From NCBI GenBank assembly GCA_902579195.1, contig CACHFV010000001.1:175644-239643 (forward strand): a DNA stretch of 64,000 nucleotides, read 5' to 3'. Of this stretch, positions 5,162 through 56,569 are shown piece by piece. The notes under the pieces are model-generated. The model had not been told where the DNA came from. It was given only the letters and a program-made list of their open reading frames with translations, and searched no databases. Position 1 is the stretch's first letter. The number at the start of each line of letters is the position of its first letter. Source of the stretch: an uncultured SAR86 cluster bacterium (GTDB taxonomy: Bacteria; Pseudomonadota; Gammaproteobacteria; Magnimaribacterales; TMED112). The translations under genes were made by a program, and so were the position numbers.

Positions 5162-5164
5162 AAT

Positions 5165-22283: not shown

Positions 22284-22927
22284 TTCCAGTTGTAACAATT
22301 GATGGCCCTTCAGGCTCTGGCAAAGGAACAATATCAAAGGCATTAGCAATTCATTTAGGTTGGAATTATCTTGATAGTGGTCTGATCTATAGATGTTTTG
22401 CATATTTGACCATGATTGGGACAAGCGATGTTCCAAAAGCTATCAAAGAAATTGAGCATAATTTTGATCTAAATAAAGAGGAAATTTTATTTAATAAAAA
22501 AAATATAACCTCAGTGATAAGAGGTAAAGAGATAACAATGTTATCTTCTGAATTATCGCAAAAACCTGAAGTAAGATCGCAGTTAATTGAAATTCAAAAA
22601 ACTTTCAGAGAGCATCCAGGTTTAGTGGCTGAAGGAAGAGATATGTCTTCTAAACTATTTCCTGATTCATTGGTAAAAATTTATCTTACAGCTTCTTTAG
22701 ATGTCAGAGTTAAGAGACGATCGAAACAGCTTATACAATCAAATATAAGCTTTGATGAGATTGATTTAAGAAGAGATATTCAGGAGAGAGATCAACGAGA
22801 TCAAAACAGAATACATTCACCATTGGTGCAAACAAAGGATTCAATATTGATTGATAATAGCAATATTTCAGCAGACTCGACTTTAGAAATAATTCTGGAG
22901 CAAGTTAAGCTTAGTTATTTAGTTTAG
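22280..22927 (+). CDS. cmk: Cytidylate kinase
   Basis: IDGPSGSGKGT, YLDSGLIYR, VAEGRDM, RDQRDQNR. Confidence 0.95.
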   Translation: MIPVVTIDGPSGSGKGTISKALAIHLGWNYLDSGLIYRCFAYLTMIGTSDVPKAIKEIEHNFDLNKEEILFNKKNITSVIRGKEITMLSSELSQKPEVRSQLIEIQKTFREHPGLVAEGRDMSSKLFPDSLVKIYLTASLDVRVKRRSKQLIQSNISFDEIDLRRDIQERDQRDQNRIHSPLVQTKDSILIDNSNISADSTLEIILEQVKLSYLV

Positions 22928-23865: not shown

Positions 23866-23871
23866 TGTAAT

Positions 23872-24876: not shown

Positions 24877-25982
24877 TTAGACTTAAGTTTTTCTATTTCA
24901 TTAATGTACTCTTTTAATACATTTTTTTCATCAAAAAGTTGCTCAGCTCTTTTTCTTGATTGATTGCTCATTGACTGTCTTGTTTTCTCGCCAGCAGTAA
25001 TAAATATATGAAGTTTTTCAACAAGATCATCAATAGACTTTTCTTTACATATTAAGCCATTAACTCCATCTACAACTACATCATTGCCATTTAAGCTTGT
25101 AGATATTATTGGCTTTCCCATTGCACAAGCTTCAAGCAATGTTTTTGGCAACCCTTCGTTGTAATAAGTTGGCAGAACAATGCAGTCGCAATTTTTTATA
25201 TGCTCTTCAGTTCTATCAGACTTTCCTAAAAATATGATCTCATCTGTATCTTCTATAGCTTTGACATCTTGTTCATTAAGAGATCCAGGTGAGTCATCAA
25301 TAAATCCAAGAATAGAAAAATTCACTGACTCTCCAAAATCTTTTTTTATAATTTTTGCAGCTGCGATATATTCAAGAATTCCTTTATCCTTCAATAATCT
25401 GCTCATAAAAAGAAACTTTATTACACCATCATTAGGGTTGTCGTAAACTTTAAATCTTTCCAAATCCACACCTGATCCATAGATTCTTTTTGAATTCTTT
25501 TGGCTTACAATCCCTTCTTTTAAAAATAAGTCTCTGTCATGATTATTTTGGAAAAAAACCATCTTTGCTTTTTTTTGTGAAATTCGATACAGGAATGTTA
25601 TTAACCCCTTTAATATACGATTGCTTGAAAAGATTAAACCTAAGCCTGAAATATTATTGATTGTTGAAATGCCCATTAGCCTTGCAACTAGTGAACAGTA
25701 GATATTACTTTTTGGAGTAAAGTTTAAGATGCACTCTATCGCATATTTTTTTAAATTAAATAATATTTTGCATAATGTAAGGATGTCAGAAAATGGATTA
25801 ATCCCTCTTCTAAATGGAATATCTATAAATATACAACCAAGATTTTTTAGTTTGATGCTGTATTCATCTTCTGGAGCAAGAATATATACCTCATGCCCTT
25901 GATCAAGTAATTTTCTTATAGTACTTTCTCTAAAATTTAGCAGATACCAACTGGTATTAGCAGATAGGGCAACTTTTAACAT
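24873..25982 (-). CDS. Glycosyltransferase family 4 (PglA/CapM-like)
   Basis: NTSWYLLNFR, TPKSNIY, SGVDLERF, SRLLKDKGILEY, EGLPKTLLEA. Confidence 0.9.
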   Translation of the reverse strand: MLKVALSANTSWYLLNFRESTIRKLLDQGHEVYILAPEDEYSIKLKNLGCIFIDIPFRRGINPFSDILTLCKILFNLKKYAIECILNFTPKSNIYCSLVARLMGISTINNISGLGLIFSSNRILKGLITFLYRISQKKAKMVFFQNNHDRDLFLKEGIVSQKNSKRIYGSGVDLERFKVYDNPNDGVIKFLFMSRLLKDKGILEYIAAAKIIKKDFGESVNFSILGFIDDSPGSLNEQDVKAIEDTDEIIFLGKSDRTEEHIKNCDCIVLPTYYNEGLPKTLLEACAMGKPIISTSLNGNDVVVDGVNGLICKEKSIDDLVEKLHIFITAGEKTRQSMSNQSRKRAEQLFDEKNVLKEYINEIEKLKSK

Positions 25983-35473: not shown

Positions 35474-36594
35474 TGTCTTATATTTTTACATCTGAATCAG
35501 TATCAGCTGGCCATCCTGATAAAATATGTGATCAAATTTCTGACGCTATCTTGGATGCTTGTCTTATTCAAGATAAAAACTCAAGAGTTGCCTGCGAAAC
35601 TATTGTCAAAAATAACAATGTCGTCTTAGCTGGAGAAATTACCACTATCGCTGAAATAGATTACGAACAGATTGCACGCAGTGTGGTAAAAGACATTGGC
35701 TATGATCATGATGGGCTTGGTTTTAGCTATGACAGCTTCAGATTTACCAACTATATTTCAAAACAAAGCCAGGACATAAGTGAGGGCATTGCTCAAGGTG
35801 AGCAGTTGGGGTCTGGTGATCAAGGCATTATGTTTGGTTATGCTTGTCGGGAAACCTCAGAGTTAATGCCTCTGCCAATTGCTCTAGCCCATCAACTTAC
35901 ACTTAAACATGAAGGTCTGCGACAAGACAATAGTCTTGGATTGAGGCCAGACGCCAAATCTCAAGTAGCTGTCGAATACAATGATAACTACCAACCTCAG
36001 AGAATTGATTCCATTGTTTTTTCCAGCCAGCACGATCCAGACCTATCATTAGAACAATTACGTGAACTTGTGAGAGAAGAAATTATCTATAAAACATTAC
36101 CGCAAGATCTTATCGATGACAAAACCAAATTTTTTATTAACCCAGCTGGACGCTTTGAAATTGGTGGCCCTGTAGGCGATTGTGGTTTAACCGGCCGCAA
36201 AGTTATCGTTGATACTTATGGTGGCATGGCACGTCATGGAGGCGGAGCTTTTTCTGGCAAAGATCCATCCAAAGTAGATCGCTCAGCTGCATATGCCTTG
36301 AGGCAGGTTGCTAAATCTTTAGTAGCAGCTAATTTTTGTGATTACTGTGAGATACAAGCATCCTATGCCATAGGTGTGGCTGAACCAACCTCAATCTTTA
36401 TCAATGCATTTGAATCGGAAAAGGTTTCGACAAGTGATCTGGCACAGCTGGTATCATCAAACTTTGACCTGACGCCATCAGGCATTATTGCTGAGCTTGA
36501 TTTGTTGCAACCAAATTACTTTAACACAGCATCTTATGGTCATTTTGGTCGAGAGGATCAAAACTTTACTTGGGAAGAAGTAAAAAAATTATGA
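35473..36594 (+). CDS. metK: S-adenosylmethionine synthetase
   Basis: [49 protein letters not shown]. Confidence 0.97.
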
Positions 36595-37370
36595 AAGTTT
36601 CAGTTGTAAGTGGTGGGTTTGACCCTATTCACTCTGGTCATATTGCTTACCTAAATGCCGCAAAAGAGCAGGGCGATATATTAATTGTTGCTCTCAACTC
36701 CGATGCTTGGTTGACCAATAAAAAAGGGCAGCCTTTTATGAGTTTTGAAGAAAGGAAAACTATTTTAGAAAATCTTACTTGTGTTGATGAAGTCATGGAT
36801 TTTAAAGATGATGATCTTGGTAGCTGCATCAATGCTTTGGTAAGAATCAAACAAAAATATCCAAATGAGCACATCATTTTTTGTAATGGCGGTGATCGGA
36901 ATGATTCTAATATTCCAGAAATGAGTGTGTCTGGCATTGATTTTAAATTTAGCATTGGCGGCGAAGATAAAAAGAATTCAAGCAGTTGGATTCTAAAAAA
37001 CTGGCAAGGCGATTCAGAAGGCAGAGTCTGGGGCAAGTTCTTCAACCTGTATCAAGATAAGAAAATGAAACTTAAAGAACTAATTATTGACTCTCAGAAA
37101 GGCATGAGCTTGCAACGACATTTCAAAAGAGATGAAATATGGTTTGTTTCACAAGGGGAATGTAAGGTAAAATTTAAGGCCATTGGCGATAATGAATTTA
37201 ACGAACATCATCTAAAGCTCCATGATGTGTTTAAAGTGTCCCGAGAAGACTGGCATCAAATATTCAATCCATTTGAAGAGGAATGTAGGATTATTGAAAT
37301 TCAATACGGTGACGAGACTTCTGAGGAAGATATTGAGAGATTAGAATTTTATAAAGGGAATAATGAGTAA
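36591..37370 (+). CDS. Cytidylyltransferase-like (HxGH) domain fused to a cupin (mannose-6-P isomerase type II-like) domain
   Basis: [37 protein letters not shown]; C-terminal RVWGKF...[13 protein letters not shown]...IIEIQYG...EEDIER. Start set at ATG 36591 (ATGA overlap with metK). Confidence 0.8.
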
Positions 37371-38715
37371 CGATCATAAAGTAAAAGACATAACATTAGC
37401 TGAATTTGGCAGGCAAGAAATCCTGCTAGCTCAAGATGAGATGCCTGCCTTGATGCAGTTAAGAGACAATTACCGTGATGAACAGCCGCTCAAAGGAGCC
37501 AAAATCATGGGCTGCATACATATGACAATACAAACAGCTGTATTAATTGAAACTCTTATTGATTTAGGTGCTGAAGTTAGGTGGTCATCATGTAACATCT
37601 TTTCAACACAAGATCATGCAGCAGCAGCAATCGCTGCTAAAGGAATTCCAGTTTTTGCATGGAAAGGAGAAACAGAAGAAGAGTATGAATGGTGTCTAGA
37701 CCAAACTATAAAAAAAGATGGCAGGCCTTGGGATGCAAATATGATCCTTGACGATGGGGGCGACTTAACAATTAAAGTTCATAAAGAATACCCTGAAATG
37801 TTAGAACATATACATGGAATTTCTGAAGAAACTACTACTGGTGTTAAAAGGCTTAAAGAGATGCTTTTAAAAGGTGAGTTAAAGGTTCCAGCAATCAATG
37901 TTAACGACTCAATTACAAAATCAAAAAATGATAACAAGTACGGATGTCGACACGGACTTGATGATGCTATTAAACGTGGAACAGATATGCTTTTATCAGG
38001 AAAGAAAGCTTTAGTTATTGGTTATGGAGATGTTGGTAAGGGCTCAGCAGACTCATTAATGCAACAAAAAATGATTGTAGATGTAACAGAAGTAGATCCA
38101 ATCTGCGCTATGCAGGCTTGTTTCGATGGATATTCAGTTGTTTCTGCTTACAAAAATGGAATTGTTGATGATAAAGGCACCAATTTAGATTCAGAACTTC
38201 TTAAAAAATATGACCTTGTAGTTACAACAACAGGAAATATAGACGTTTTAGATAAGTTTATGCTTGATGCGCTTCGATCTGGTTGTGTAGTTTGTAATAT
38301 TGGTCACTTTGACAACGAAATTGATGTGAAATTCTTAAAAACATTTGATTGGTATGAGGTGAAGCCTGGAGTTCACAAAGTTATTAAACCAAATGGTGAT
38401 TATTTAATACTTTTGGGTGAGGGTCGTTTGGTTAATTTAGCATTAGCAACAGGCCACCCAAGCAGAGTTATGGATGGTTCTTTCTGTAATCAGGTTTTAG
38501 CTCAAATTATGTTATTCAAGGATGGTTTTGCAAATAAACCAGATAATGATAAAAAGCTTTACGTAAAAGTCTTACCAAAAAAATTAGATGAGGAAGTAGC
38601 CTCTTTGATGGTCAAGGGTTTTGGTGGAACACTAACTAAACTTTCAAAAGAGCAACAAAATTATATATCTGTAGAAGAAGATGGCCCATTCAAAGGTGAT
38701 TCTTATAGCTATTAG
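37363..38715 (+). CDS. ahcY: Adenosylhomocysteinase
   Basis: [50 protein letters not shown]...GHPS. Confidence 0.97.
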
Positions 38716-38734
38716 TTTAAAATAGAAAAATTCA

Positions 38735-38808
38735 GGCTGAGTGGCAGAGTGGTCATGCAGCGGACTGCAACTCCGTGTACATCGGTTCGATTCCGTTCTC
38801 AGCCTCCA
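38735..38808 (+). tRNA. tRNA-Cys (GCA)
   Basis: Acceptor GGCTGAG/CTCAGCC, U discriminator, encoded CCA; anticodon loop CT-GCA-AC; GGTTCGATTCC T-loop (one T-stem mismatch). Confidence 0.96.
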
Positions 38809-38855
38809 ACTTTATATATTTAAATTTTATAATCTGTTAAAATTTTGCACATGTT

Positions 38856-38942
38856 GCCCAGGTGGTGAAATTGGTAGACACAAGGGACTTAAAATCCCTC
38901 GAAGGAAACTTCGTGCCGGTTCAAGTCCGGCTCTGGGCACCA
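38856..38942 (+). tRNA. tRNA-Leu (TAA)
   Basis: Acceptor GCCCAGG/TCTGGGC + ACCA; anticodon arm AGGGA-CTTAAAA-TCCCT; long variable arm; GGTTCAAGTCC. Confidence 0.96.
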
Positions 38943-38947
38943 ATTAA

Positions 38948-40030
38948 GTGTTTAATATGGAAAAGATTTCAAAATTTGCTACAAAAAAAATTAAAAAGTT
39001 AACCCCATATAAAATTGCTAGCCAAGAAATATGGAAAACTGATTCAAAAGCAAAATTAAAATTAGACTGGAATGAAGGTATTGATGAAGTGCCTAATGAA
39101 ATAATTGAACCATTCAGAAAATTTTTAGACAAAGGACTTCTTAAGTATTATCCAAATGTTCGTAATGAAAGCTTATTAGATGCTTTGGCACATTTTAATT
39201 CATGCAATAAGAAATATATTACATATTTTTCGGGCATCGATAGTGGTCATGAATACATAGCTAGAGCCTTTCTTGAGCTAAATGACAGAGTTGTAATGCT
39301 GTCTCCTACTTATGACAATTTTAGAGCAGTATGTGATGCAAGTGAGGCAGAAGTTTTAAAGTATGACTTCTTTAATAACAAAGGAGAATTTCCAGATCTA
39401 AATGTGGATGCCAAGCTTATTTATTTTGCTAACCCAAATAACCCAACAGGTGAAATAGTTAGCAAAAATCAATTAAAAGAATATCTAAATAAATATAAGA
39501 ATACATTATTTGTTGTTGATGAAGCATATATAGAGTTTGGTGGAGTCTCTGCAGTTGATCTTGTTGAAAGCCATGAAAACTTAATAATTTGTAAAACGCT
39601 TTCTAAATCTTTTTGCCTTGCAGGTATAAGATTTGGTTATTTAATTGCTCACGAAGACATTATCACAACTATAGATTCAATAAGAAATCCTAAAAGTGTT
39701 TCTATGTTTAGCCAGATCATAGCAGAAGCAGCAATCAGAAACTCTGAATACATGTGGGAAAATGTTGCCAAAACCAATAATGCCAAGAAAATTTTAAGAA
39801 GCATGCTTGAAAAAAATCACCCTAACATAAGTGTTTCAGGAGAGCATGGTAATTTTTTGTTATTGGAGTTTGAAAATGAGCAAGAAAAAAACAACCTAGT
39901 ACAGGTTTTGGAAAAACAAGGAATATACATTAGATCAACTTCACACCTAATTAATAACTCATGCAGAATTACTGTCCCTCCATCGCACAAACTTGAACCA
40001 TTAATCAAAGCCTTTGAAGAAATTACATAA
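38948..40030 (+). CDS. PLP-dependent class I/II aminotransferase (HisC/CobD-like) in the polysaccharide cluster
   Basis: KLDWNE, ANPNNPTG, VVDEAYIEF, KTLSKSFCLAGIRFGY. Start may be ATG 38957. Confidence 0.85.
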   Translation: MFNMEKISKFATKKIKKLTPYKIASQEIWKTDSKAKLKLDWNEGIDEVPNEIIEPFRKFLDKGLLKYYPNVRNESLLDALAHFNSCNKKYITYFSGIDSGHEYIARAFLELNDRVVMLSPTYDNFRAVCDASEAEVLKYDFFNNKGEFPDLNVDAKLIYFANPNNPTGEIVSKNQLKEYLNKYKNTLFVVDEAYIEFGGVSAVDLVESHENLIICKTLSKSFCLAGIRFGYLIAHEDIITTIDSIRNPKSVSMFSQIIAEAAIRNSEYMWENVAKTNNAKKILRSMLEKNHPNISVSGEHGNFLLLEFENEQEKNNLVQVLEKQGIYIRSTSHLINNSCRITVPPSHKLEPLIKAFEEIT

Positions 40031-40670
40031 ACTAGCTATTTTTGATTTTTGTGGAACAGTTGTTCTGCCGCAAACTGGTGATTTATTTGTTTCTTACGTG
40101 CTTAACAAAGAAAAAAAATACCTTGAATTTCTAACCTCTCTAATACTGAGAAACAAGATATATCAATTTATAAAAAGAAAAATCTTTAGATACAAAACTA
40201 ATGATAAATTTAGAATACTCCAGCTGATTCAAGGCATTGAGAAGCAAAAAATTGATGAATATTCAATTCTTTTTGCATATTTTTTAGAAAAATACAAAAT
40301 TGAGAGTGTAAGCAAATATTTAGATAAATTTTTAGATGATAAGCAATATGATGTCTACATTATATCTGCAGGGTACAGTTGTTATATTGAAGAAATGTTT
40401 ACATCATCAGTAAAAATTATTGCGAATGATTTTTGTTATGTTGATGGAAGGTTTACAGGAAACATTGATTCAAAAGATTGTATTGAGAATGAAAAAGTAA
40501 ATAAACTTTCAAACTATATCAGCATCGACTCGATTGACTTTGATTCAACACATGTTTTCTCAGATTCCTTGAGTGATTTGCCAATATTTAGATTAGGGAA
40601 GCATAACCATTATGTGATAGGGAAAAATATTAAAAATTTGAATCAAAATAATTTGGAGAAAGCTAATTGA
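40014..40670 (+). CDS. HAD-IB family phosphatase
   Basis: IFDFCGT (motif I variant), IISAG (II), EKV (III), FSDSLSDLP (IV). Confidence 0.82.
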   Translation: MKKLHKLAIFDFCGTVVLPQTGDLFVSYVLNKEKKYLEFLTSLILRNKIYQFIKRKIFRYKTNDKFRILQLIQGIEKQKIDEYSILFAYFLEKYKIESVSKYLDKFLDDKQYDVYIISAGYSCYIEEMFTSSVKIIANDFCYVDGRFTGNIDSKDCIENEKVNKLSNYISIDSIDFDSTHVFSDSLSDLPIFRLGKHNHYVIGKNIKNLNQNNLEKAN

Positions 40671-41581
40671 ACTATATCTTTGGCAGCACTTCTAGGGCAC
40701 AACCATATATAAAAAATAAAAAACTTCTAAAACTTAATTTTATAAATATTTTTTTTCTAAAAAAGAGTGATGTTTTATATGTAACAAGATCTTGGAGTTT
40801 ACTAATCGAACTCATTTCAGTAAAAAAAAATAGGCCAAAAATAATTATTCTTGCTGATGGTTTGATCACGAAGTCAAATTGCCTTGTAAGGCACAATTCT
40901 TATCATTTGCCACTATTTCAAAAAATAAATGGAGATTTATTATTAGTGAGGCAAAACCTAAGTTCTTTACCAAATTTTATACCTAAAAATATGGTCTCTT
41001 CAATTATTAAACATGATGCTGATCTATGTTCATCTACTGCAAAAAAAGTAGTTTTAATTTTTGGCAATGATCCTTTTGTAGGAATGAATCATGACCTTCT
41101 CATAAAGAAAATCTATCTTTTGAATGATTTATTGAGCAATCAAATGAAAGTTTATTTTTCTTGTGGGAATAAAAGCTTTAAGAATACGTTGATTAATCGA
41201 TTTCCAAATTTTATCAATATAGGGCAAGTTGATGGCCAGAATATTGGCATTGGTGAAACAGTTTTTATAACAACACCATCGACAGCATCTTATGACCTTT
41301 TTCTAAAAGGTGCAAAAGTTTTATATTTCTCAGATTTACAGTGTGAAACAATTAAAAAACTTTATAAATCAACTAGTTCTCTTAATTTTGCTGATGGAAA
41401 TTTGAAGTTTCAATATAAGAAATGCAAAGATATAGAAAATATTGAGTTCTATTCAGATAAAGTTAGAAAAGTGGAGGCACTTAAAATTGATATTAAAAGC
41501 ATCTACTCCCAAGTAAATATATTTAAACCATTCGTTCTTCAGCGGTTACTTGGAGATATGAAACAATTATTTTTAGGCTAA
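40667..41581 (+). CDS. Hypothetical protein in the polysaccharide cluster
   Basis: 304-aa ORF overlapping the upstream stop; no recognisable motif. Confidence 0.65.
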   Translation: MNYIFGSTSRAQPYIKNKKLLKLNFINIFFLKKSDVLYVTRSWSLLIELISVKKNRPKIIILADGLITKSNCLVRHNSYHLPLFQKINGDLLLVRQNLSSLPNFIPKNMVSSIIKHDADLCSSTAKKVVLIFGNDPFVGMNHDLLIKKIYLLNDLLSNQMKVYFSCGNKSFKNTLINRFPNFINIGQVDGQNIGIGETVFITTPSTASYDLFLKGAKVLYFSDLQCETIKKLYKSTSSLNFADGNLKFQYKKCKDIENIEFYSDKVRKVEALKIDIKSIYSQVNIFKPFVLQRLLGDMKQLFLG

Positions 41582-41585
41582 TGTC

Positions 41586-42491
41586 ATGTTAACCAAGTTA
41601 GTAAGTTTTCTAAAAAGGCTTTATGTAGCATTTACGATTTATTTCTTACCAGAAAGATTATTCATAAGGTACAAATATTTAAAATCAATTGGCCAAAAAC
41701 TAAACCTAAGTTCTCCACTTAGACTAACAGAAAAAATTCAATGGCTTAAATTACATAACAAAAAAAAATTACATGTAGATGTAACAGATAAAATTAAAGT
41801 TAGAGATTATGTCAAAGAAATAATTGGAGAGACGCACTTAGTTCCATTGATAGATATATATGAAAAATCAGAAGATATTAAGCAAGAGGACCTACAAAGA
41901 TTTAGTATCATTAAATGCAATCATGATAGTTCTGGAGGGACAATTATACGAAACCATATTCCACAAATTGAGAAAATTAAAAAGGACTATAAGGCTAGGC
42001 TAAAGCACAATCATTATTATCAAACAAAAGAATGGCAATACAAGCACATAAAGCCTAAAATTTTAATTGAAAAGCTACTAATCACTTCTTCAGGATGCAT
42101 TCCAAATGACTATAAATTTCATTGCTTCCATGGTGTTCCTAAGTTTATATATTGTTCTATTGATAGAGAAAATCTGAATTATCGAAAGATATATGACATT
42201 AATTGGAATGAGCTTAAAGTTAATTGGAAGCCAAGAAAACAGGAAAAGAGAGAAGGGCCAAATATCCCGAAACCAAAAACCATCGAAAAAATGCTATCAA
42301 TTAGCAGACAGCTATCAAAGGATTTTGAATATTGTCGTGTAGACCTTTATGAAGTTGATCAAAAGGTTTTTTTTGGAGAAATTACTCTCCACCCACATGG
42401 AGGCTTTGAAAGTATTGACCCCATAGAATATGACTATGAATGGGGAAGTTTTCTAGACTTGAGTCAGATAAAAAATGAAAAAAAAGTTTAA
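41586..42491 (+). CDS. TupA-like ATP-grasp amidoligase
   Basis: EKIQWLKL, DKIKVRDYV, IIKCNHDSSG, WQYKHIKPKILIEKLL, DYKFHCFHG, CRVDLY...FGEITLHP. Confidence 0.9.
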   Translation: MLTKLVSFLKRLYVAFTIYFLPERLFIRYKYLKSIGQKLNLSSPLRLTEKIQWLKLHNKKKLHVDVTDKIKVRDYVKEIIGETHLVPLIDIYEKSEDIKQEDLQRFSIIKCNHDSSGGTIIRNHIPQIEKIKKDYKARLKHNHYYQTKEWQYKHIKPKILIEKLLITSSGCIPNDYKFHCFHGVPKFIYCSIDRENLNYRKIYDINWNELKVNWKPRKQEKREGPNIPKPKTIEKMLSISRQLSKDFEYCRVDLYEVDQKVFFGEITLHPHGGFESIDPIEYDYEWGSFLDLSQIKNEKKV

Positions 42492-43689
42492 TTCAATTTT
42501 CAGCAACTTTGTAAACTTGGCTGTTTCAAAATCTGTTGAGCTTTTAGTCCCCATTCTAGCGATACCATTGTTAATATCTAGATTGGGAATAGAGTCATAC
42601 GGTGTTTATATATATGCCTTCTCAATATTTGCAATATTCAGTGTTTTAGTAAGATTAGGTCTAGATGATTATGGAGTGAAACAGCTAACTCAATCAGATA
42701 AACATAATGAAAAAACAATATCTCTTACATATTATTCAATTAAGTTTTTTTTAGCTTTTTTAGTAATCCTAACAAGTTTTTTTGCAGTAACTCTTTTTGA
42801 GATAAATTATATTTTTCTGTTGTGTAGTCTGGTTCTGCTAGGAGATGCTTCAGATTCTATATGGTTCTTTCTTTCAAAGAATAACCTGCGGTTTTACACA
42901 TTCACAAAAGTTATATCAAAGATACTGTACCTATTATTGCTTTATCTGAATGTTCAAAGTGAAGCAGATTTGTTCCTAGTTCCAATTTTTTATGCATTAA
43001 TTTCATTTGGTGCTGGACTATTTCAAATGGGTTATGTTTATCAAAATAGTCTTGGAGAATTTAAATTTTTTCTATCAAAAAAATTAGGGAAAGAAATCAT
43101 TACAAAAGGTTCTCATATAGTTGGTTCAAATTTCATTTCTGTAATTAAAGATAGAGGTGGATTTATTTCGCTTGGTCTTCTCGGGCTAAATAGTTATGTT
43201 GGCATTTATGACATTATTTACAAAGTTGTGATGGTGTTGAATATACCTCCACAGATAATCAGCACCTCATACTTTCCAAGGATTAGCAGTGAAGGGTCAA
43301 AGAATCTTTTATTTCAATCTTTTTTTGTTAACTTCTTATATTCAGCGATCACTATTCCTATACTTATCCTTATACAATACATATCTAATTTACTTTTTTC
43401 AGAAGTATTTATTGCAGATCCAAGTGTTACAGTTGCTATTTTTTGTGCATGTTTCTTTTATAGTATCAGCATAAACATAGCAAAAAATATTATTATTATT
43501 TCAGGCAATACTTTAGTTCTGCTTATTTCAGCTATAGCTTCATCTCTGGTTTATATTTCTGCTTTAGTTTTTACTTTTGGTGAAAACTTTGATGTCTATA
43601 TGGCACTATATCTCTTCGCGTTAGCATATGCAGTAGAAATGTTAGTGAGACTTATCTTTGTATTGGTAAAAAAAGTCTACAATACTTAA
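42475..43689 (+). CDS. wzx: Oligosaccharide flippase
   Basis: Multi-TM MOP-family pattern: PLLISRLGIESYG, VGIYDIIYKV, YFPRIS. Confidence 0.85.
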   Translation: MKKKFNSIFSNFVNLAVSKSVELLVPILAIPLLISRLGIESYGVYIYAFSIFAIFSVLVRLGLDDYGVKQLTQSDKHNEKTISLTYYSIKFFLAFLVILTSFFAVTLFEINYIFLLCSLVLLGDASDSIWFFLSKNNLRFYTFTKVISKILYLLLLYLNVQSEADLFLVPIFYALISFGAGLFQMGYVYQNSLGEFKFFLSKKLGKEIITKGSHIVGSNFISVIKDRGGFISLGLLGLNSYVGIYDIIYKVVMVLNIPPQIISTSYFPRISSEGSKNLLFQSFFVNFLYSAITIPILILIQYISNLLFSEVFIADPSVTVAIFCACFFYSISINIAKNIIIISGNTLVLLISAIASSLVYISALVFTFGENFDVYMALYLFALAYAVEMLVRLIFVLVKKVYNT

Positions 43690-43706: not shown

Positions 43707-44735
43707 ATGGAGAATAAGAAAATTATTTTTTTTTTACCATCATATGGGGGTGGAGGGGCTGAACAGGTATTCATAAGATTATTGAACCACTTCACTAAGA
43801 AAGGCATTAAAGCTTCTGTTTTTATTAAAAGAAATAAAGGTGAGCATTTTGGAAGACTGAACGGGGATGTTAAGTCTAAGATTTCATCTATTGATTGGTT
43901 ACCAATTTCAGTCATTGAATTTATTTTCTACGTCTGGAAGGTAAAACCAGATTTAGTGTTCATAACAACAACATATCCAATTGCAGCTATTGGGGCTCTA
44001 AGAAAATTATTGCCAAGTTCTTCAAGAATTATTGGGCGTTTTACCAATATGTATAGTGAAGAATTGAAAAATGTTAAAAGCAATATGATCAAAAAAATAT
44101 TGCCTAGTTCTATAATGAATTTTGATAGGATAATTTGCCAATCCATTGATATGAAAGAAGATCTTCTTGCAAATATCCCAAGGATCGAAAATAAAATAAG
44201 AGTTATCAATAATCCAGTACCAACTTTTCAAAAAAAGAATCTCTTTAGAGAAAATTACATATGTGTGGGAAGGCTCTCAAAACAAAAAAACTTTGATTTA
44301 GCTATCAAAGCCTTTGCTTCAACAAACAAAATTCTAAATATATATGGCATTGGTCCTGAGGAAAAAAAATTAAAAAAACTAATATCTAATCTAAATTGTA
44401 AAAATGTAATTATTCATGGATTTGTTGAAGATATAATAGATAAAATTTCTTCTTCTAAAGGGCTGGTAGTAACTTCAAACTTTGAAGGCTTCTCAAATGT
44501 AATTATCGAGGCACTTGCATGTGGTACACCCATAATTTCACGAAAATTTAAGGGAGGTTTTAGTGAGGCTTTAAATCAAAATAATTCTGTTATTTTTGAA
44601 GGCTCTGACCCTGAGGATTTAATTAATGCAGTTGATCAATTTGAATCAAAAGTTTTTGATAAAGATAAAATATCATCTGAAACGTATGAAAAGTTTGGAA
44701 TAGAAAAGATTTCACAACAGTACATAGAACTATAG
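43707..44735 (+). CDS. Glycosyltransferase family 4
   Basis: GGGGAE, VGRLSKQKNFD, SNFEGFSNVIIEALACGTP. Confidence 0.9.
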   Translation: MENKKIIFFLPSYGGGGAEQVFIRLLNHFTKKGIKASVFIKRNKGEHFGRLNGDVKSKISSIDWLPISVIEFIFYVWKVKPDLVFITTTYPIAAIGALRKLLPSSSRIIGRFTNMYSEELKNVKSNMIKKILPSSIMNFDRIICQSIDMKEDLLANIPRIENKIRVINNPVPTFQKKNLFRENYICVGRLSKQKNFDLAIKAFASTNKILNIYGIGPEEKKLKKLISNLNCKNVIIHGFVEDIIDKISSSKGLVVTSNFEGFSNVIIEALACGTPIISRKFKGGFSEALNQNNSVIFEGSDPEDLINAVDQFESKVFDKDKISSETYEKFGIEKISQQYIEL

Positions 44736-44741
44736 AAGTAA

Positions 44742-45887
44742 ATGAAGATCGCATTAATTATTGATTCTTTAAGATTTGGTGGAGCTCAAAAATGTTCTGT
44801 TGACTTATATGAGGCATTGCAAAAAGAAGGGCATGATGTCTGCTTTATTACTTACAGGGAGCATAAACAATTAAAAAATGCAGATGACGTAAAAAATAAT
44901 ACAATTTATGTGCCCGGCCTCTCAAAAAAATACTTTCTTGATTATTTAGATAGATTCCTGGGTAAGATATTTGGGCGTACTTATGGATATATCATGAGCT
45001 ATTTTTATACCTTTTGGTTAAAGCAAAGAATAAATTTAAATTCATATGATGCATTATTATTGGTTAGCGATTCAGGTTTCTTTCCATTCTATAAATTGAA
45101 TCACAAAAGACTATTTTATGTGGCTCATTCACACAAAAGCTCACAATATTTATTTAAATGGCACACCTCATTTATTAACAGAATGCTTTATAAAAATATT
45201 TTTAAAAACAAAAAAATTATTGCTATTACAAATGAAATTAAAAAAGATCTCATAGATGAATTTGATGTTCAAGAAAAAAACATTAGTGTTATTCCAAACA
45301 TAGTGAATTTTGAAAGAATAGAAAAACTTTCACATGAGAAACTAAAATATCCTTTTGATTCAAATAATGACTTTATAATTCATGTAGGTCGACACTCAAA
45401 AGAAAAGAGAGTGGAAGATCTAATTAAATGTTTTAAAGAGGTTGTTTTAGATCATCCTGATCTAAAATTAGTTTTAGTTGGTGAAGGGCCTGAAACAAGA
45501 AATCTCAAAATTGCGGTTAATAAATTAGCTCTTAATTCAAAAGTATTTTTTACAGGTTTTATGAACAATCCATATAATTTAATAAAAAAATCTAAATTAC
45601 TTGTTCTTTGTTCAAAAAGAGAAGGTCTTCCCACTGTGATAATAGAGGCATTGTCCTTGAAGACGGATGCAATTTGCTCAAAATGTTTGTCTGGCCCATA
45701 TGAAATATATAAAGATAAGTATCATTATCATACCTTTAACATAGGTAACTTAAGTGAAATGAAAAAAATGATAAACAATTCCTTGTTAAACTATAATTCT
45801 CCTGAAAAAGAGCTAGTTGATGATATATTATTTCGATATTCTGAAAACGAAATTACTAAAAAATATTTAAAATTAATCAATGAATAA
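44742..45887 (+). CDS. Glycosyltransferase family 4
   Basis: FGGAQK, VGRHSKEKR, SKREGLPTVIIEAL. Confidence 0.9.
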   Translation: MKIALIIDSLRFGGAQKCSVDLYEALQKEGHDVCFITYREHKQLKNADDVKNNTIYVPGLSKKYFLDYLDRFLGKIFGRTYGYIMSYFYTFWLKQRINLNSYDALLLVSDSGFFPFYKLNHKRLFYVAHSHKSSQYLFKWHTSFINRMLYKNIFKNKKIIAITNEIKKDLIDEFDVQEKNISVIPNIVNFERIEKLSHEKLKYPFDSNNDFIIHVGRHSKEKRVEDLIKCFKEVVLDHPDLKLVLVGEGPETRNLKIAVNKLALNSKVFFTGFMNNPYNLIKKSKLLVLCSKREGLPTVIIEALSLKTDAICSKCLSGPYEIYKDKYHYHTFNIGNLSEMKKMINNSLLNYNSPEKELVDDILFRYSENEITKKYLKLINE

Positions 45888-47037
45888 CATAGTTAAGCAG
45901 GACAAGACTTTAGTTTATTTATTTTTATCTTCATTGCTTTTTGTCAACTACAATATTTATTTTAATTTGCTTCCACTCCTTCCAATTCTTTTGCTAATGA
46001 ATTACCAAAACGATTTAGTAAATAAAACATTAATTTATAGATTCCTGCTTGGGTCATTTATTTTATTTCTTTTTCTCCTTAAACATGTTTTTTTAGACCC
46101 AGTGTTTTTGGAAAAGGGTGTAGTTTTTTCGGAAATCACCCCACTAAGGTATGTGTATTATAACTATCTAATACTCTTGCTATTTTTTAGTTTTGAAATT
46201 GTTAAAAAACATGAAAATACTTGTCTTGAATGGGCAGAGCTAGCATTAAAATTTTTAATGTTTTCTGGTTTTATTCTTCTTTTCTTAAGCATATTTGGTT
46301 TGAATCTTTACCCTGTTGAAATTCTTGCAGGCAAGGAAGCAAGAGTAACATCAAATGAATCTATAGGTTTAGGGATGGTAGGTATTGTTGAGGAGCCATC
46401 AACTTTTGGAGCAATGATAATCCTATTATCTATTATTCTTTTTTCATCAAATTTTAATCCTAATCTTGGTCTTTTTGGTCTTTTCTTTTCATTGCTAACT
46501 TTTTCTACAGCTATATGGTTTTTGGTTCCTGTAATGTTAAGTGTAATTATATTTTTGTATTTTGAAAAATTCAGAGATACACCACTTCTATTAATTGGAT
46601 CAGGAACGTTTTTTCTTATAGCTTTTTTCGCTCTTGTTACTAATTTCCAGCTTGAAAAGATTACAGATGGGTATGCTGTATCAATAAGACTTTACTTAAT
46701 AGAGCTGTTGTCAGACCGAGACCCATACCTAATTTTTTGGGGGGCAGGTCCATGGGGGTTCGAGAGTATAATTTATGATCTTACAGACCCCTGGTATGGT
46801 GCTTTGAGAAGTGCTTCAATAAATGATTTAGGATCCTTTGTCTTTATTTATATATTTTTTGGTGTGTTGGGCATTTTCAGTTTTGCATTATTTGTAATCT
46901 TCGCAATAAAAGATATAAAAATTAAAGTACTTTTTTTGATTGCAACTTTAGTAAAATTATCAATATTCCATCCACTTTTCATATTTTTCATGGCGATTGC
47001 AAGTCAAATTAGCAAACGAGATCATTTAAAAAGCTAA
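45880..47037 (+). CDS. wzy: Probable polysaccharide polymerase (Wzy-like)
   Basis: About ten TM segments, EEPS motif in a loop, located in a cluster with wzx; assigned by context. Confidence 0.6.
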   Translation: MNNIVKQDKTLVYLFLSSLLFVNYNIYFNLLPLLPILLLMNYQNDLVNKTLIYRFLLGSFILFLFLLKHVFLDPVFLEKGVVFSEITPLRYVYYNYLILLLFFSFEIVKKHENTCLEWAELALKFLMFSGFILLFLSIFGLNLYPVEILAGKEARVTSNESIGLGMVGIVEEPSTFGAMIILLSIILFSSNFNPNLGLFGLFFSLLTFSTAIWFLVPVMLSVIIFLYFEKFRDTPLLLIGSGTFFLIAFFALVTNFQLEKITDGYAVSIRLYLIELLSDRDPYLIFWGAGPWGFESIIYDLTDPWYGALRSASINDLGSFVFIYIFFGVLGIFSFALFVIFAIKDIKIKVLFLIATLVKLSIFHPLFIFFMAIASQISKRDHLKS

Positions 47038-47091: not shown

Positions 47092-48252
47092 ATGAAAAAA
47101 ATTACAATTGTTGGTGCAGGATATGTAGGGCTTTCGTTAGCTGTGTTGCTTGCAAAAAAGAATAGCGTAACTTTAATAGATATTGATGAAAGTAAAATAA
47201 GTAAATTGAATAATGGTAACTCCACATTAGCTGAAACTAGCATTCAAGATATGCTTACTGAAAACTTTAGAAATCTATCTTTTAAAACTAACTTTAATAG
47301 CGATGAAGCTGATTTTTATATAATTGCTACATCAACTAACTATGACCCTGAAAAGCAATTTTTTGATACTAATAGTGTAGAAAAAGTTATCAAAAAAATT
47401 AAAACACAATTTAATACAGCTAAGATAGCAATTAAGTCGACAATTCCTGTTGGTTTTACTGAAAGCATGCAAACTACATACAACTGTTCAAATATCTTTT
47501 TTTCACCTGAGTTTTTAAGAGAGGGCACCTCTGTTGAAGATAATATAAATCCATCAAGAATTGTTATTGGCAATCAAGATGATGTTGGAATAAATTTTGG
47601 CAATCTGCTTGCAGAAATAACGGAAAACAATCCTCCACAAATTTTCATGGACAGCAAAACAGCTGAAGCTGTTAAATTATTTTCAAATAGTTATTTAGCA
47701 ATGCGCGTTTCTTATTTTAATGAGCTAGATAGTTTTGCTTTTGATAAAAAACTAAACCCTAAAAAACTTATTGAGGCAGTTTGTCTTGATGACAGGATTG
47801 GCAGCTCATATAACAATCCATCTTTTGGATATGGTGGGTATTGTCTGCCAAAAGATTCAAAACAACTCCTGGCAAACTATAAAAATGTTCCACAAAATTT
47901 AATAAGTGCTGTGGTGAAAGCTAACTCAACAAGAAAAGATTTTATTTCTGATCAAATTATTGCTTTAAAGCCAAAATCAGTTGGCATTTATAGGCTAGTT
48001 ATGAAAAGTGGGTCCGATAATTTTAGAGAATCTGCAGTTCAAGGAATCATGAAAAGGCTAAATGCAAAAAATATTAAAATGTTTATCTATGAGCCAGAGA
48101 TGACTGAAAAAACTTTTTTTGGCTGTACAGTTCTAAATAACTTTAATGAGTTCTGTGATCATGCAGAGGTAATAGTAGCTAATAGACATTCCAAGCAACT
48201 AGAAGCTGTAAAAAACAAAGTTTTTACAAGAGACATTTTTCAAAATAACTAA
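47092..48252 (+). CDS. ugd: UDP-glucose 6-dehydrogenase
   Basis: VGAGYVGLS, FSPEFLREG, YNNPSFGYGGYCLPKD, MKSGSDNFRES. Confidence 0.95.
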   Translation: MKKITIVGAGYVGLSLAVLLAKKNSVTLIDIDESKISKLNNGNSTLAETSIQDMLTENFRNLSFKTNFNSDEADFYIIATSTNYDPEKQFFDTNSVEKVIKKIKTQFNTAKIAIKSTIPVGFTESMQTTYNCSNIFFSPEFLREGTSVEDNINPSRIVIGNQDDVGINFGNLLAEITENNPPQIFMDSKTAEAVKLFSNSYLAMRVSYFNELDSFAFDKKLNPKKLIEAVCLDDRIGSSYNNPSFGYGGYCLPKDSKQLLANYKNVPQNLISAVVKANSTRKDFISDQIIALKPKSVGIYRLVMKSGSDNFRESAVQGIMKRLNAKNIKMFIYEPEMTEKTFFGCTVLNNFNEFCDHAEVIVANRHSKQLEAVKNKVFTRDIFQNN

Positions 48253-50415: not shown

Positions 50416-51183
50416 ATGAATAAGATCTTTACATTTATTTTTGCTATTTTCCTTCAGGCATGTGCACTATCACCAGGAATGTATGATCCGCCAAGCTTTA
50501 ACAAAAACCTTGAAAATAAAAAAGTAATAGAAATTACCCCTAATTTAATAAAGAACCAAAACACTATTTCTGAAAACTATAAAATTTCCAATGGTGATGA
50601 GTTAGCTATTGTTGTCTTTGGGCAAAATGAATATTTTCCAATTCAATCATATATAGGGAATAGTCCATATACAAAAAGAATTGTTGATGAGAATGGAAAA
50701 ATATTCTTTCCATATGCAGGCGAAGTTTTTGTTGCTGGGTATACCGTTTCAGAAGTAAGAACAATTTTAACAAAACTCTTATCAAAAAATTTTGTTGATC
50801 CTCAATTAGATGTAGGAATATCAACATTCAACCCTAATAGAAACATTTATGTCTTGGGTGAAGTTGTAAGACCTCAGACAATGAGCGTAGGGTTAGTTGG
50901 TTTGACACTTTCTGATGCTATTGCACAGGCTCAAGGATTATCTCCTGTCTCCTCAAAAGGTAATGCTGTTTTTGTTATTCGCCAAGACTCTGAAGGAGGC
51001 GGATCAGTTTATAAAGCAAACTTTAATAATGCTTCAGAATTTATAATTGCAGGTGAATTTACCCTTATTCCAGGAGATATTATTTTTGTTGGCGCAGCTG
51101 ACATTACAAAATGGAATAGGTTCATTTCACAGTTATTCCCATTTGCCTCTTTCTTAAATCAGGTAGATAACCTGCAAAATTAA
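50416..51183 (+). CDS. wza: Polysaccharide export outer-membrane lipoprotein
   Basis: Lipobox LQAC, VDENGKIFFPYAG, DPQLDV, YVLGEV, KWNRFISQLFP. Confidence 0.9.
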   Translation: MNKIFTFIFAIFLQACALSPGMYDPPSFNKNLENKKVIEITPNLIKNQNTISENYKISNGDELAIVVFGQNEYFPIQSYIGNSPYTKRIVDENGKIFFPYAGEVFVAGYTVSEVRTILTKLLSKNFVDPQLDVGISTFNPNRNIYVLGEVVRPQTMSVGLVGLTLSDAIAQAQGLSPVSSKGNAVFVIRQDSEGGGSVYKANFNNASEFIIAGEFTLIPGDIIFVGAADITKWNRFISQLFPFASFLNQVDNLQN

Positions 51184-51608
51184 TGATAGCAGTTGTATGC
51201 CAAGCTAATTATTGCAGAAGCCCTGTAGCTAAGTTTTTGCTTCAAAAATATTTGCATAATATAGAAATTGACTCATTTGGCATCGGCTACTTTCCTCAGG
51301 CAACTATGGATCCAAGAAGTATTGAATATCTTGAGAGTAAAGGTTTCTCAGACCTTTATCATATCCCTAAGAAAATTAATAAAAGCCATATAAAAAATAT
51401 TGACTTGATCTTGATGATGGATATGAAGGTACTAGAATATTTTAGGCAATTCCACAGCAATGATCTAAACAAATGTAAATTATTCACGTTTTTAGATCCA
51501 AAAAAATCAATAATTGATCCATTCAAGTTTGATAACATTGAAGACTATTTCAGAGAGATGGATAAGATAGATGATTTTTGCAAACTTTGGTCAGAACATC
51601 TAAATTAA
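51183..51608 (+). CDS. wzb: Low-molecular-weight protein-tyrosine phosphatase
   Basis: VCQANYCRSP (CX5R) and IIDPF; next to wza/wzc. Confidence 0.88.
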   Translation: MIAVVCQANYCRSPVAKFLLQKYLHNIEIDSFGIGYFPQATMDPRSIEYLESKGFSDLYHIPKKINKSHIKNIDLILMMDMKVLEYFRQFHSNDLNKCKLFTFLDPKKSIIDPFKFDNIEDYFREMDKIDDFCKLWSEHLN

Positions 51609-55486: not shown

Positions 55487-56569
55487 ATGTATGCAGATTT
55501 TTTGCCAATTGCATTTTTGCTCACAGTATTTTTTTGTTACGTATTAATTAAGCTTGATAAGAGAGCTGCAAAGTTAGGTGATATAAACTTAAGAGATTCT
55601 CCTCAAACATTACATACAAAATCAGTATCAAGGTTTGGAGGAGTTGCGATTTTAGGCTCATTGACATGTACTGCGCTTGTTGCTGGTTACAACTTTTCTA
55701 ATTCAGAATTCTTCCAAGTTGGGGTAATGTCATTACCAGCTTTTTTAGCAGGTTTCATAGATGATTTAAAAATACAAATAAAGCCATACTTTAGAATGTT
55801 TCTTATTCTTCCTGTGCCTATAATTTTTTTCTATTACTTTGATCTTAAAGTAAGTAACTTAGATATTGGTTTCTTAGATAATTTTCTAGGAATAGAGGTA
55901 TTCGCCTTACTATTCCTATGCTTCGCTGTAGTAGGAATGATAAATGCTTTTAACTTAATTGATGGAATAAATGGATTATTGGTAGCTTATTTGCTTTCGA
56001 TAATTCTTTCTTTAGTAATAGTTGAGTTTGCAGTAGGACCTGTCTTTGAAATATCTGATGAATTTAGGATTTATACAAATATTTTTTTGGGAACACTTTT
56101 AGGTTTTATGTGCTTAAATTTTCCATCTGGCAAAATTTTTATGGGTGATGCAGGGGCATACTTTCTTGGCGCCTTAACCTGTTTTGGTTTAATTTATGCT
56201 CATCTTGCCAACATAAATAGTTCTCCATGGGCGGTAATGTGTTTGCTTGCTTATCCATTTACAGATTTATGTTTTAGTGTCTTTAGAAAAAAGGTTATCT
56301 TAAATCTAAATGCAATGGAGCCTGATGCAGAACATCTACATCATGTGATCTTTAAAAGAATGAAAAAAATCAAATTTAAGAAAGAAAGAGCACGTCATTT
56401 TTTTACTGTTTGTTTTATAGTGGCCTTTAATCTACCTTATTTATGCTTAACTTTATATTTCTTGAACTCTACTAATGCTTTAATCACAATTTTTTCTGTC
56501 TATATCATTTCATATCTCTTAATTTATTTTGCTTTTAGCCCAAGATTTTTATTAGTCAATGAAAAATAA
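55487..56569 (+). CDS. Undecaprenyl-phosphate HexNAc-1-phosphate transferase (WecA/MraY family)
   Basis: SRFGGVAI, GFIDD, NAFNLIDGINGL, KIFMGDAGAYFLG, PDAEHLHH. Confidence 0.88.
   Translation: MYADFLPIAFLLTVFFCYVLIKLDKRAAKLGDINLRDSPQTLHTKSVSRFGGVAILGSLTCTALVAGYNFSNSEFFQVGVMSLPAFLAGFIDDLKIQIKPYFRMFLILPVPIIFFYYFDLKVSNLDIGFLDNFLGIEVFALLFLCFAVVGMINAFNLIDGINGLLVAYLLSIILSLVIVEFAVGPVFEISDEFRIYTNIFLGTLLGFMCLNFPSGKIFMGDAGAYFLGALTCFGLIYAHLANINSSPWAVMCLLAYPFTDLCFSVFRKKVILNLNAMEPDAEHLHHVIFKRMKKIKFKKERARHFFTVCFIVAFNLPYLCLTLYFLNSTNALITIFSVYIISYLLIYFAFSPRFLLVNEK

Follow-up and report, generated by a model that had tools for sequence, protein, structure and literature searches.

The window analysed in this study is a stretch of 64,000 nucleotides (nt) from an uncultured SAR86 cluster bacterium (GenBank assembly GCA_902579195.1, contig CACHFV010000001.1, positions 175,644 to 239,643 of the forward strand). 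Four genes at its positions 38948-42491, coding for a HisC-like aminotransferase, a HAD phosphatase, a protein without a described family (the 'orphan') and a TupA-like ATP-grasp ligase, stand at the head of a capsule gene island. From sequence comparison, and with a probability of about 0.7, we propose that this module amidates a uronic acid of the capsular repeat unit with an amino-alcohol phosphate made by the aminotransferase, and that the product is subsequently dephosphorylated; the amine is most likely serinol. The four genes would represent a stand-alone version of the uronamide module that Cj1437, the C-terminal domain of Cj1438 (Cj1438C) and Cj1435 form in Campylobacter jejuni, here in a marine bacterium of roughly 1 Mb. 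The module comprises:

38948-40030, + strand: HisC-like aminotransferase dependent on pyridoxal 5'-phosphate (PLP), 360 amino acids as annotated; PF00155
40014-40670, + strand: HAD phosphatase, probably HAD-IB, 218 amino acids; PF12710 and TIGR01488
40667-41581, + strand: orphan, without a family, predicted GT-B fold, 304 amino acids; AlphaFold2 model
41586-42491, + strand: stand-alone TupA-like ATP-grasp protein, 301 amino acids; PF14305

All four genes precede wzx, two GT4 genes, a wzy-like gene, ugd and wzc-wza-wzb on the same strand. A preliminary description of this DNA had placed four tightly coupled genes at the head of a capsule cluster, and we find open reading frames (ORFs) with exactly these coordinates: the aminotransferase and phosphatase genes overlap by 17 nt, the phosphatase and orphan genes by 4 nt, and a gap of 4 nt separates the orphan from the ligase gene, which wzx in turn overlaps by 17 nt.

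Relationship to the Campylobacter pathway

The chemistry that we propose has been characterized in the capsule pathway of C. jejuni HS:2. According to the available parts of three papers, Cj1437 transaminates dihydroxyacetone phosphate (DHAP) to (S)-serinol phosphate, and Cj1436 decarboxylates L-serine phosphate to ethanolamine phosphate (PMC11800397, PMC11800379, PMC13276843). With ATP, the TupA-like C-terminal domain of Cj1438 uses either amine to amidate in-chain glucuronic acid (GlcA) (PMC11800397, PMC11800379). The HAD protein Cj1435 removes the phosphate after amidation, which is a prerequisite for further chain growth (PMC11800397, PMC11800379, PMC13276843), and the glycosyltransferase fused to the ligase acts on the amidated sugar (PMC11800379). 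In HS:19, the equivalents are HS19.12 (ugd), HS19.11 (a GT2::ligase fusion), HS19.10 (serinol phosphate synthesis) and HS19.09 (phosphatase) (PMC13276843; likewise from the part of the text at hand).

Applied to the window, the pathway would run as follows. The HisC-like aminotransferase would turn DHAP into (S)-serinol phosphate. Ugd would supply UDP-GlcA, and a glycosyltransferase, either one of the two GT4 enzymes or the orphan, would add GlcA or an epimer of it to the lipid-linked repeat unit; GlcA is the presumed acceptor because ugd lies in the island. With ATP, the TupA-like enzyme would then form an amide between serinol phosphate, through its amine, and the sugar at its C6 carboxylate, whereupon the HAD phosphatase would strip the phosphate from the sugar-bound amide. 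The orphan would act just before or just after the amidation. The final flipping, polymerisation and export of the serinol-amidated polymer, uncharged by now, would fall to Wzx, Wzy and Wzc/Wza/Wzb. The preliminary description had likewise assigned the amidation of a capsular uronate to the aminotransferase, the phosphatase and the TupA-like protein, and in this they do match the characterized C. jejuni enzymes. Its order of events has to be revised: it let the phosphatase act before the ligase and gave the ligase free serinol as its substrate, whereas in C. jejuni, as far as these sources cover the matter, the ligase takes the phosphorylated amine and the phosphatase acts afterwards.

For direct comparisons we used the locus L049 from a metagenome-assembled genome (MAG) of Campylobacter sp., in which the gene order is ugd, glf, GT2::TupA (769 amino acids), aminotransferase, aminotransferase, HAD. 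This order agrees with the consecutive numbering from Cj1441 to Cj1435 and with the HS19.12/.11/.10/.09 assignments. The window and the C. jejuni loci, including HS:19, share the same three enzyme families within one locus that also holds ugd, and they differ in several respects. The C. jejuni ligase is the C-terminal domain of a GT2 fusion, whereas that of the window is a free protein of 301 amino acids; a second paralogue of the Cj1436 decarboxylase type is present in C. jejuni and absent from the window; and the window has a GT-B-fold gene inserted between the phosphatase and ligase genes, unlike C. jejuni. Identities between the corresponding proteins are 25-37%. Furthermore, the window locus is of the Wzx/Wzy/Wzc-Wza type, whereas the C. 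jejuni capsule is described as using an ABC-transporter pathway (PMC11800397, from the part available).

The aminotransferase and its relation to HisC

At first sight the aminotransferase resembles a histidinol-phosphate aminotransferase. It matches PF00155 with 166 bits, its best solved relatives are HisC structures (E 1.4e-33), and it shares with HisC the fold-type I PLP family, the length and the best NCBIfam model. On that model (hisC, TIGR01141), however, it scores 235.7 bits, under the cut-off of 276.55; the second-best NCBIfam model is CobD (TIGR01140, 169.8 bits). Five other members of its clade reach 205-272.5 bits on the hisC model and all fall under the cut-off, compared with 327-357 bits for three HisC proteins of the same order. 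The residues N165, D191, Y194, S219-K220, R228, R329 and R340 are invariant in the alignment of the clade and are assigned as PLP-enzyme residues by comparison with fold-type I enzymes in general. Its true start is probably the ATG at 38957, because tRNA genes end just upstream and an identical database protein (P0001) has 357 amino acids.

We placed the enzyme in a tree of 109 rows (quick IQ-TREE search, LG+G4), which took in three of nine HisC candidates of the same order. It falls into a clade of 92 rows (SH-aLRT support 99) together with the ligase-adjacent aminotransferase of L049 and all aminotransferases from loci that combine the three enzymes; a subclade of 78 rows (support 95) holds both the window enzyme and the L049 protein at the Cj1437 position. 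Outside the clade are five HisC proteins fused to HisD, the three same-order HisC proteins and all eight second-aminotransferase paralogues. The pairwise comparisons agree with this: the window enzyme is 37% identical to the Cj1437-position protein of L049 (194 bits, E 4e-64) and 24% identical (53.5 bits) to the phosphatase-adjacent protein at the Cj1436 position. The latter scores best on CobD, the window enzyme best on hisC. Cj1436 and the CobD-type PLP decarboxylases belong to the same superfamily as the window enzyme, with the Cj1436-position gene outside its clade, and the CobD-like decarboxylation that the preliminary description had offered as an alternative is disfavoured, since the enzyme groups with the paralogue at the transaminase position and not with that at the decarboxylase position. 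We regard it as a candidate DHAP to (S)-serinol-phosphate transaminase of the Cj1437-type clade. The RtxA-type DHAP aminotransferase of rhizobitoxine synthesis is likewise said to make serinol phosphate from DHAP.

The closest relatives of the enzyme are marine metagenome proteins with 50-59% identity. Named relatives (35-43%) come from Winslowiella, Vibrio, Edwardsiella, Photobacterium and Bacteroidales and are annotated as HisC-family proteins only. The closest of these, from Winslowiella iniecta (L022:5176-11131), is encoded together with a phosphoenolpyruvate (PEP) mutase, a second aminotransferase, an ATP-grasp_4 enzyme and an MFS transporter, in what looks like a phosphonate natural-product cluster.

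The genomic setting also speaks to the relation to HisC. In the source genome (an 878-kb assembly, 83.7% complete) we found no other HisC-like gene, and we detected no hisD, IGPD (hisB) or hisF in it at this completeness. In addition, hisD was found in none of 18 other genomes (species) of the genus, three of which are 93-95% complete in one to three contigs. By contrast, it is present in 10 of 12 genomes from other families of the order (neither of two in genus g3, all 10 in the other nine genera sampled). The lineage is probably a histidine auxotroph. The aminotransferase itself has no match in 17 of the 18 other genomes of the genus, and a single one at 26% identity in the remaining genome; it is therefore no core biosynthetic enzyme. 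Among the findings that the preliminary description had named as speaking against it is a position of the aminotransferase inside genuine HisC clades together with the presence of the remaining histidine pathway, and neither was observed: the enzyme lies outside HisC in the tree and scores under the hisC cut-off, and the three other histidine genes were not found in the genome as assembled. In summary, the enzyme differs from HisC by score, by tree position, by the genome and the 18 others of the genus in which hisD was not found, and by its setting in an accessory island.

PF14305, the family of the ligase, is uncommon in general: it turned up in one of 14 control genomes and in none of 29 other genomes of the genus. 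Among 266 genomes of the order, that of the window is the one in which the orphan was detected.

Candidate phosphatase and ligase

The phosphatase matches PF12710 (54 bits) and, over its cut-off of 45, the HAD-IB model TIGR01488 (62.3 bits). It aligns with the Cj1435-position phosphatase of L049 at 25% identity (E 3e-15), and among solved structures a phosphoserine phosphatase matches it best (E 1.5e-4). The usual motif I of HAD phosphatases is DxDxT. In 50 of 52 aligned members of the HAD family that accompanies the related aminotransferases, among them the window and L049 proteins, this motif reads D-F-C-x-T (residues 11-15 of the window protein), a shared oddity since a cysteine takes the place of the usual second aspartate; S118, K161, D184 and D188 are likewise shared by 50 or more of the 52. 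The motif may be a signature of a Cj1435-type HAD subfamily, and the window protein is a candidate phosphatase of this type, acting on the serinol-phosphate amide.

The TupA-like protein matches PF14305 with 157.5 bits (cut-off 25) over profile positions 1-238 of 241; a sequence search of the PDB gave no match for it. Unlike its Campylobacter counterpart it carries no GT2 fusion. With the C-terminal domain (residues 454-764) of the 769-residue L049 fusion it shares 26% identity (94 bits, E 1e-25), and with ten stand-alone TupA-like proteins from loci with the same three enzymes (alignment A4) 35-40%; these ten have about 300-320 residues. Exceptions in size are the L049 fusion and an open frame of about 450 residues in L054. 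The charged residues K110, E162, D175, K177, D193-R194-E195, R251, D253 and E265 are invariant in 14 TupA sequences. On these grounds, we consider the protein a candidate uronate C6 amidoligase of the Cj1438C/HS19.11C type. A complex prediction for the ligase and the orphan (score 0.01, mark 0.32) was informative neither way.

Stand-alone PF14305 proteins have been described in another Wzx/Wzy locus: WemR, from the O-antigen locus of Proteus mirabilis, is TupA-like and predicted to add amino acids (PMC13419641). We compared this predicted amidoligase type with the window protein by description only; the part of that paper available to us mentions no partner aminotransferase or phosphatase.

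The window itself encodes a second TupA-like protein, to which the first is closer (31% identity, 136 bits) than to the Campylobacter domain. It belongs to a second sugar mini-island with a GC content of 31.5%, located between cmk and rpsA (22924-25982, - strand), which has neither an aminotransferase nor a HAD gene:

22924-23865, - strand: second TupA-like ATP-grasp protein; PF14305, 84.1 bits
23872-24876, - strand: SDR sugar-nucleotide epimerase; PF01370; GalE 154 bits and TviC 142 bits, both under cut-off
24873-25982, - strand: GT4-type glycosyltransferase; PF00534

The substrate of this second putative ligase may again be the amine of the first, or else an amino acid. The gene at 23872 had been taken for a UDP-GlcA 4-epimerase-type enzyme; it is an SDR sugar-nucleotide epimerase, and its sub-cut-off scores for both GalE and TviC single out no specificity. 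Despite its distance from the capsule island, it could yield another uronic acid.

Distribution of the cassette

To survey the neighbourhoods of related aminotransferases, species-representative genomes were scanned with an alignment of the clade, and the ORFs of the 80 loci obtained were searched with profiles of the window phosphatase and ligase. Within 6 kb, 50 of these aminotransferases have a HAD gene of the same family as that of the window, and 34 have a TupA-like gene; all of the 34 loci also have the HAD gene. The three genes are mostly contiguous, in the order aminotransferase, HAD, TupA. The co-occurrence of the trio in other loci, whose absence the preliminary description would have counted against itself, is thus seen in 34 of the 80. 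These counts are lower bounds, because several contigs end less than 1 kb from the aminotransferase. The 34 cassette loci belong to Bacteroidota (20), Bacillota (10), and Campylobacterota, Pseudomonadota, Melainabacteria and Parcubacteria (one each).

In a further 17 loci, the aminotransferase and the HAD gene occur together without a TupA-like gene. Here, another protein frequently takes the adjacent position: an ORF of about 420-465 amino acids adjoins the aminotransferase in 15 of the 80 loci, distributed as 12 of the 17 loci with aminotransferase and HAD, three of the 29 with the aminotransferase alone and none of the 34 with the full cassette. Seven of 10 scanned proteins of this kind match PF00501 weakly, two of them over the cut-off. 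The ORFs of this AMP-binding-type partner are:

L019:8719-9996; L051:8603-9997; L074:3579-4943; L084:11079-12374; and 12 further ORFs

Judged by its sequence, this protein looks like an alternative, non-homologous ligase partner of the aminotransferase clade. The aminotransferase is repeatedly tied to a ligase in this sense, because 12 of the 17 loci that have a HAD but no TupA-like gene carry the AMP-binding-type protein beside it.

In the full-text literature, we found such enzymes only in the Campylobacter papers, in one paper on a Vibrio phage receptor and in one on Klebsiella; the spread of the cassette may have been noticed earlier.

The orphan and its predicted GT-B fold

The third gene of the module had been described as an orphan, and this holds at the level of sequence: its product matches no Pfam or NCBIfam family, and the best hit of a PDB sequence search has an E-value of only 0.65. 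At the level of structure, the label no longer applies, as we found a predicted GT-B fold. Relatives are scarce: a search of 5.8 billion clusters yielded six, and one of 1.84 billion gave 41 representatives with E<=1e-3. Of the 31 relatives that were scanned, none reaches a curated Pfam cut-off, and three show stray sub-cut-off matches to unrelated families. Its neighbours in the Protein Atlas, namely the O-antigen protein LA_1612, DUF6716 and Glyphos_transf, are leads only. We also considered the orphan as a diverged copy of the TupA-like protein and rejected this (BLASTP E 0.03 over 48 residues).

An AlphaFold2 model built from six sequences (pLDDT 83, pTM 0.81) shows two Rossmann-like halves. 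With this model, Foldseek retrieved SenB, TarM and GtfA at E-values of 5e-5 to 1e-4 and TM-scores of 0.39-0.46. In an exhaustive structural alignment with VIA-align, all but one of the top 50 rows are glycosyltransferases or sugar enzymes with two Rossmann domains; the rows that are not glycosyltransferases include UDP-GlcNAc 2-epimerases and TarL. Z-scores range from 11.0 at the top to 8.2 at rank 50, with identities of 6-14%, values that bear on the fold and not on the function. The orphan is thus predicted to adopt a GT-B, glycosyltransferase-like fold, although it matches no described sequence family and no known donor-binding motif.

For a scan of metagenomes we used the six-row alignment, since an alignment of 20 relatives was too diverse, and found relatives of the orphan on five contigs. 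On three of these, neighbouring genes match those of the window: the order is orphan, TupA, wzx, one extra gene, GT4, GT4, Wzy-like and ugd in L096, HAD, orphan, TupA and wzx in L098, and aminotransferase, HAD and orphan in L100. Because its position is kept in these related marine contigs, the orphan is a fixed part of this marine version of the cassette, and cassette loci outside this version do not have it. The extra gene of L096 (3090-4757), between wzx and the first GT4 gene, has no equivalent in the window; it encodes 555 amino acids with a GINT1_N match of 142.7 bits and a weak formyl-transferase-like part.

In Campylobacter, the partner fused to the ligase is a glycosyltransferase working on the amidated sugar; by analogy, the orphan most likely fulfils the role of this fused domain and acts next to the amidation. 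On a broader reading, conceivable but doubtful in our estimate, the aminotransferase clade would provide phosphates of C3 amino-alcohols or amino acids for general use and would have been coupled repeatedly to unrelated ATP-dependent carboxylate-amine ligases, and the orphan would be a new glycosyltransferase family for amidated uronate. The ligases in question would be the TupA-like proteins (34 loci), the AMP-binding-type proteins (15 loci) and the ATP-grasp_4 enzyme of the PEP-mutase cluster, and the marine orphan would replace the GT2 domain fused to the Campylobacter ligase.

Alternative explanations

A number of observations weigh against the proposed amidation pathway. The comparison with Campylobacter runs through the syntenic genes of the L049 MAG, which stand in for Cj1437, Cj1436, Cj1438 and Cj1435, and the ligase-adjacent aminotransferase of this locus (4631-5760) is interrupted at a homopolymeric G run, which may reflect phase variation or an assembly error; we used its first 299 residues. 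The identities of the ligase (26%) and the phosphatase (25%) to the Campylobacter proteins are low, and the phosphatase scores 75 bits on TIGR01490, under the cut-off of 98.3, which the L049 and L088 phosphatases exceed with 158.8 and 114.2 bits. The quick LG+G4 tree has long branches, and its nine HisC reference rows are not united in a single group. The nearest named relatives of the aminotransferase (43%; Winslowiella and Vibrio), which form its immediate sister group on a long branch, lie in a PEP-mutase/ATP-grasp_4/MFS cluster and not in a polysaccharide locus. Across the surveyed loci, a UDP-sugar 6-dehydrogenase was found within 10 kb in only nine of the 34 cassettes, and in 29 of the 80 loci the aminotransferase has neither the HAD nor the TupA-like gene nearby. 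Besides, amino acids are another predicted substrate of TupA-like enzymes, and one of these enzymes, CfmP, has a different role (PMC13419641, from the part available). What the amine and the acceptor sugar are, and in which order the steps follow, we infer throughout by homology.

The main alternative concerns the identity of the amine. The same architecture and ligase logic could employ another small phosphorylated amine instead of serinol phosphate, such as phosphoserine made from 3-phosphohydroxypyruvate, amino-propanol phosphate or a phosphonate analogue. The identity of only 37% to the Cj1437-position protein leaves room for this, the PEP-mutase context of the nearest named relatives hints at flexible C3 phospho- or phosphono-keto substrates, the phosphatase finds its best solved relative in a phosphoserine phosphatase, and Cj1438C is reported to accept two different amines (PMC11800397, in the part at hand). 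We still consider another amine rather unlikely, given that, of the two Campylobacter paralogues, the aminotransferase is grouped with the one at the transaminase position rather than with the one at the decarboxylase position, which yields ethanolamine phosphate, and that no PEP mutase is seen among the annotated genes of the island. Phosphoserine in particular would not need a dedicated aminotransferase, because a bona fide serC elsewhere in the window already supplies it and renders such an enzyme redundant. A more radical departure would have the TupA-like protein add a free amino acid in the manner of WemR, with the aminotransferase and phosphatase serving an unrelated sugar or precursor step. 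The predicted amino-acid decorations by TupA-like enzymes of polysaccharide loci (PMC13419641, in the part available), the second TupA-like gene of the window without an adjoining aminotransferase or phosphatase, and the 17 loci with aminotransferase and HAD but no TupA together with the 29 with the aminotransferase alone fit this idea. It is improbable nonetheless, as three genes that are contiguous and co-oriented in 34 of 80 loci from six phyla are hard to explain without a shared pathway, and as 12 of the 17 TupA-less loci have a divergent AMP-binding-type ligase beside the aminotransferase. That the aminotransferase is an ordinary histidinol-phosphate or aromatic aminotransferase, located next to capsule genes by chance, could be argued from three observations: no second HisC-like gene was found in the genome, the best match of the enzyme in NCBIfam is hisC, and tyrA and aroA lie in the same window. 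We judge this very improbable in view of a hisC score of 235.7 bits where HisC proteins of the order reach 327-357, the tree that sets it apart from them, the lack of detectable hisD, hisB and hisF in the genome and of hisD in all 18 others of the genus, the lack of a counterpart in 17 of those 18, and its place inside a low-GC island bounded by tRNA genes. The amidation of a capsular uronic acid, most likely with serinol phosphate, remains our preferred reading.

Locus and flanking regions

The upstream edge of the low-GC polysaccharide island is formed by two tRNA genes, the second of which ends 5 nt upstream of the annotated GTG start of the aminotransferase gene and 14 nt from the likely ATG. 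The GC content is 27.7-31% over 40-52 kb, compared with 36-38% in the flanks. Beside the module, the island and its edge contain the following features, of which wzx, both GT4 genes, wzc, wza and wzb were assigned by Pfam/NCBIfam matches:

38735-38808, + strand: tRNA-Cys(GCA), predicted by ARAGORN
38856-38942, + strand: tRNA-Leu(TAA), predicted by ARAGORN
42475-43689, + strand: wzx
43707-44735, + strand: first GT4 glycosyltransferase
44742-45887, + strand: second GT4 glycosyltransferase
45880-47037, + strand: Wzy candidate, family-less, 385 amino acids, nine hydrophobic segments
47092-48252, + strand: ugd; TIGR03026, 317 bits
48319-50409, + strand: wzc
50416-51183, + strand: wza
51183-51608, + strand: wzb

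The match of the gene at 47092 agrees with the UDP-glucose dehydrogenase for which it had initially been taken. In two complete genomes of the same genus, other low-GC sugar genes follow the tRNA-Leu gene, and none of the module genes is present there; the module is accessory, and the island that holds it, at a tRNA site, is variable. Both tRNAs may be co-transcribed with the capsule operon. A scan of 38600-43000 for promoters and terminators yielded 17 promoter-like sites, against a mean of 23.5 in shuffled sequences, and nothing usable.

Two genes outside the island, downstream of aceE and aceF (55487-57566), are candidates for the initiating enzymes of this capsule, a link that we draw from their families:

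55487-56569, + strand: polyprenyl-phosphate sugar-phosphate transferase of the WecA/MraY family; PF00953, 94 bits; TIGR02380, 78.5 bits, under cut-off
56559-57566, + strand: GalE; TIGR01179, 351.9 bits, over the cut-off of 262.3

On the other side of the tRNA genes, between metK and ahcY, a core gene at 36570-37370 encodes a cytidylyltransferase-like domain fused to a cupin of the mannose-6-phosphate-isomerase type. We considered that this protein could activate serinol phosphate, which the orphan would then transfer in a TagF-like manner, and set the idea aside, because the gene is kept beside ahcY in genomes of the genus that do not have the module.

Biological meaning

Because the pathway has already been published for C. 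jejuni, the amidation route proposed here is not a new one. Both its chemistry and its three enzyme families are known from that organism, and stand-alone TupA-like proteins of O-antigen loci have been predicted to be amidoligases (PMC13419641, in the part available). What is new is that the system is set in a Wzx/Wzy island of a streamlined marine bacterium, that its ligase is free-standing, that the contiguous cassette is widely spread and that an orphan with a predicted GT-B fold goes with it here.

The analysis provides a concrete, testable function for a gene that automatic annotation would name histidinol-phosphate aminotransferase, and it would bring to Wzx/Wzy loci a decoration pathway that had been known from Campylobacter capsules alone. 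The aminotransferase, the phosphatase and the TupA-like ligase appear as a compact, mobile cassette with representatives among gut Bacteroidota and Bacillota, Flavobacterium and marine plankton. Moreover, the GT-B-fold orphan and the AMP-binding-type partner represent two unstudied protein families with a clear biochemical context. For the organism itself, the amidation of a uronic acid would take one negative charge off the cell surface, and we suggest that such a change, encoded in a strain-specific island next to tRNA genes, might alter the recognition of the cell by phages or grazers.

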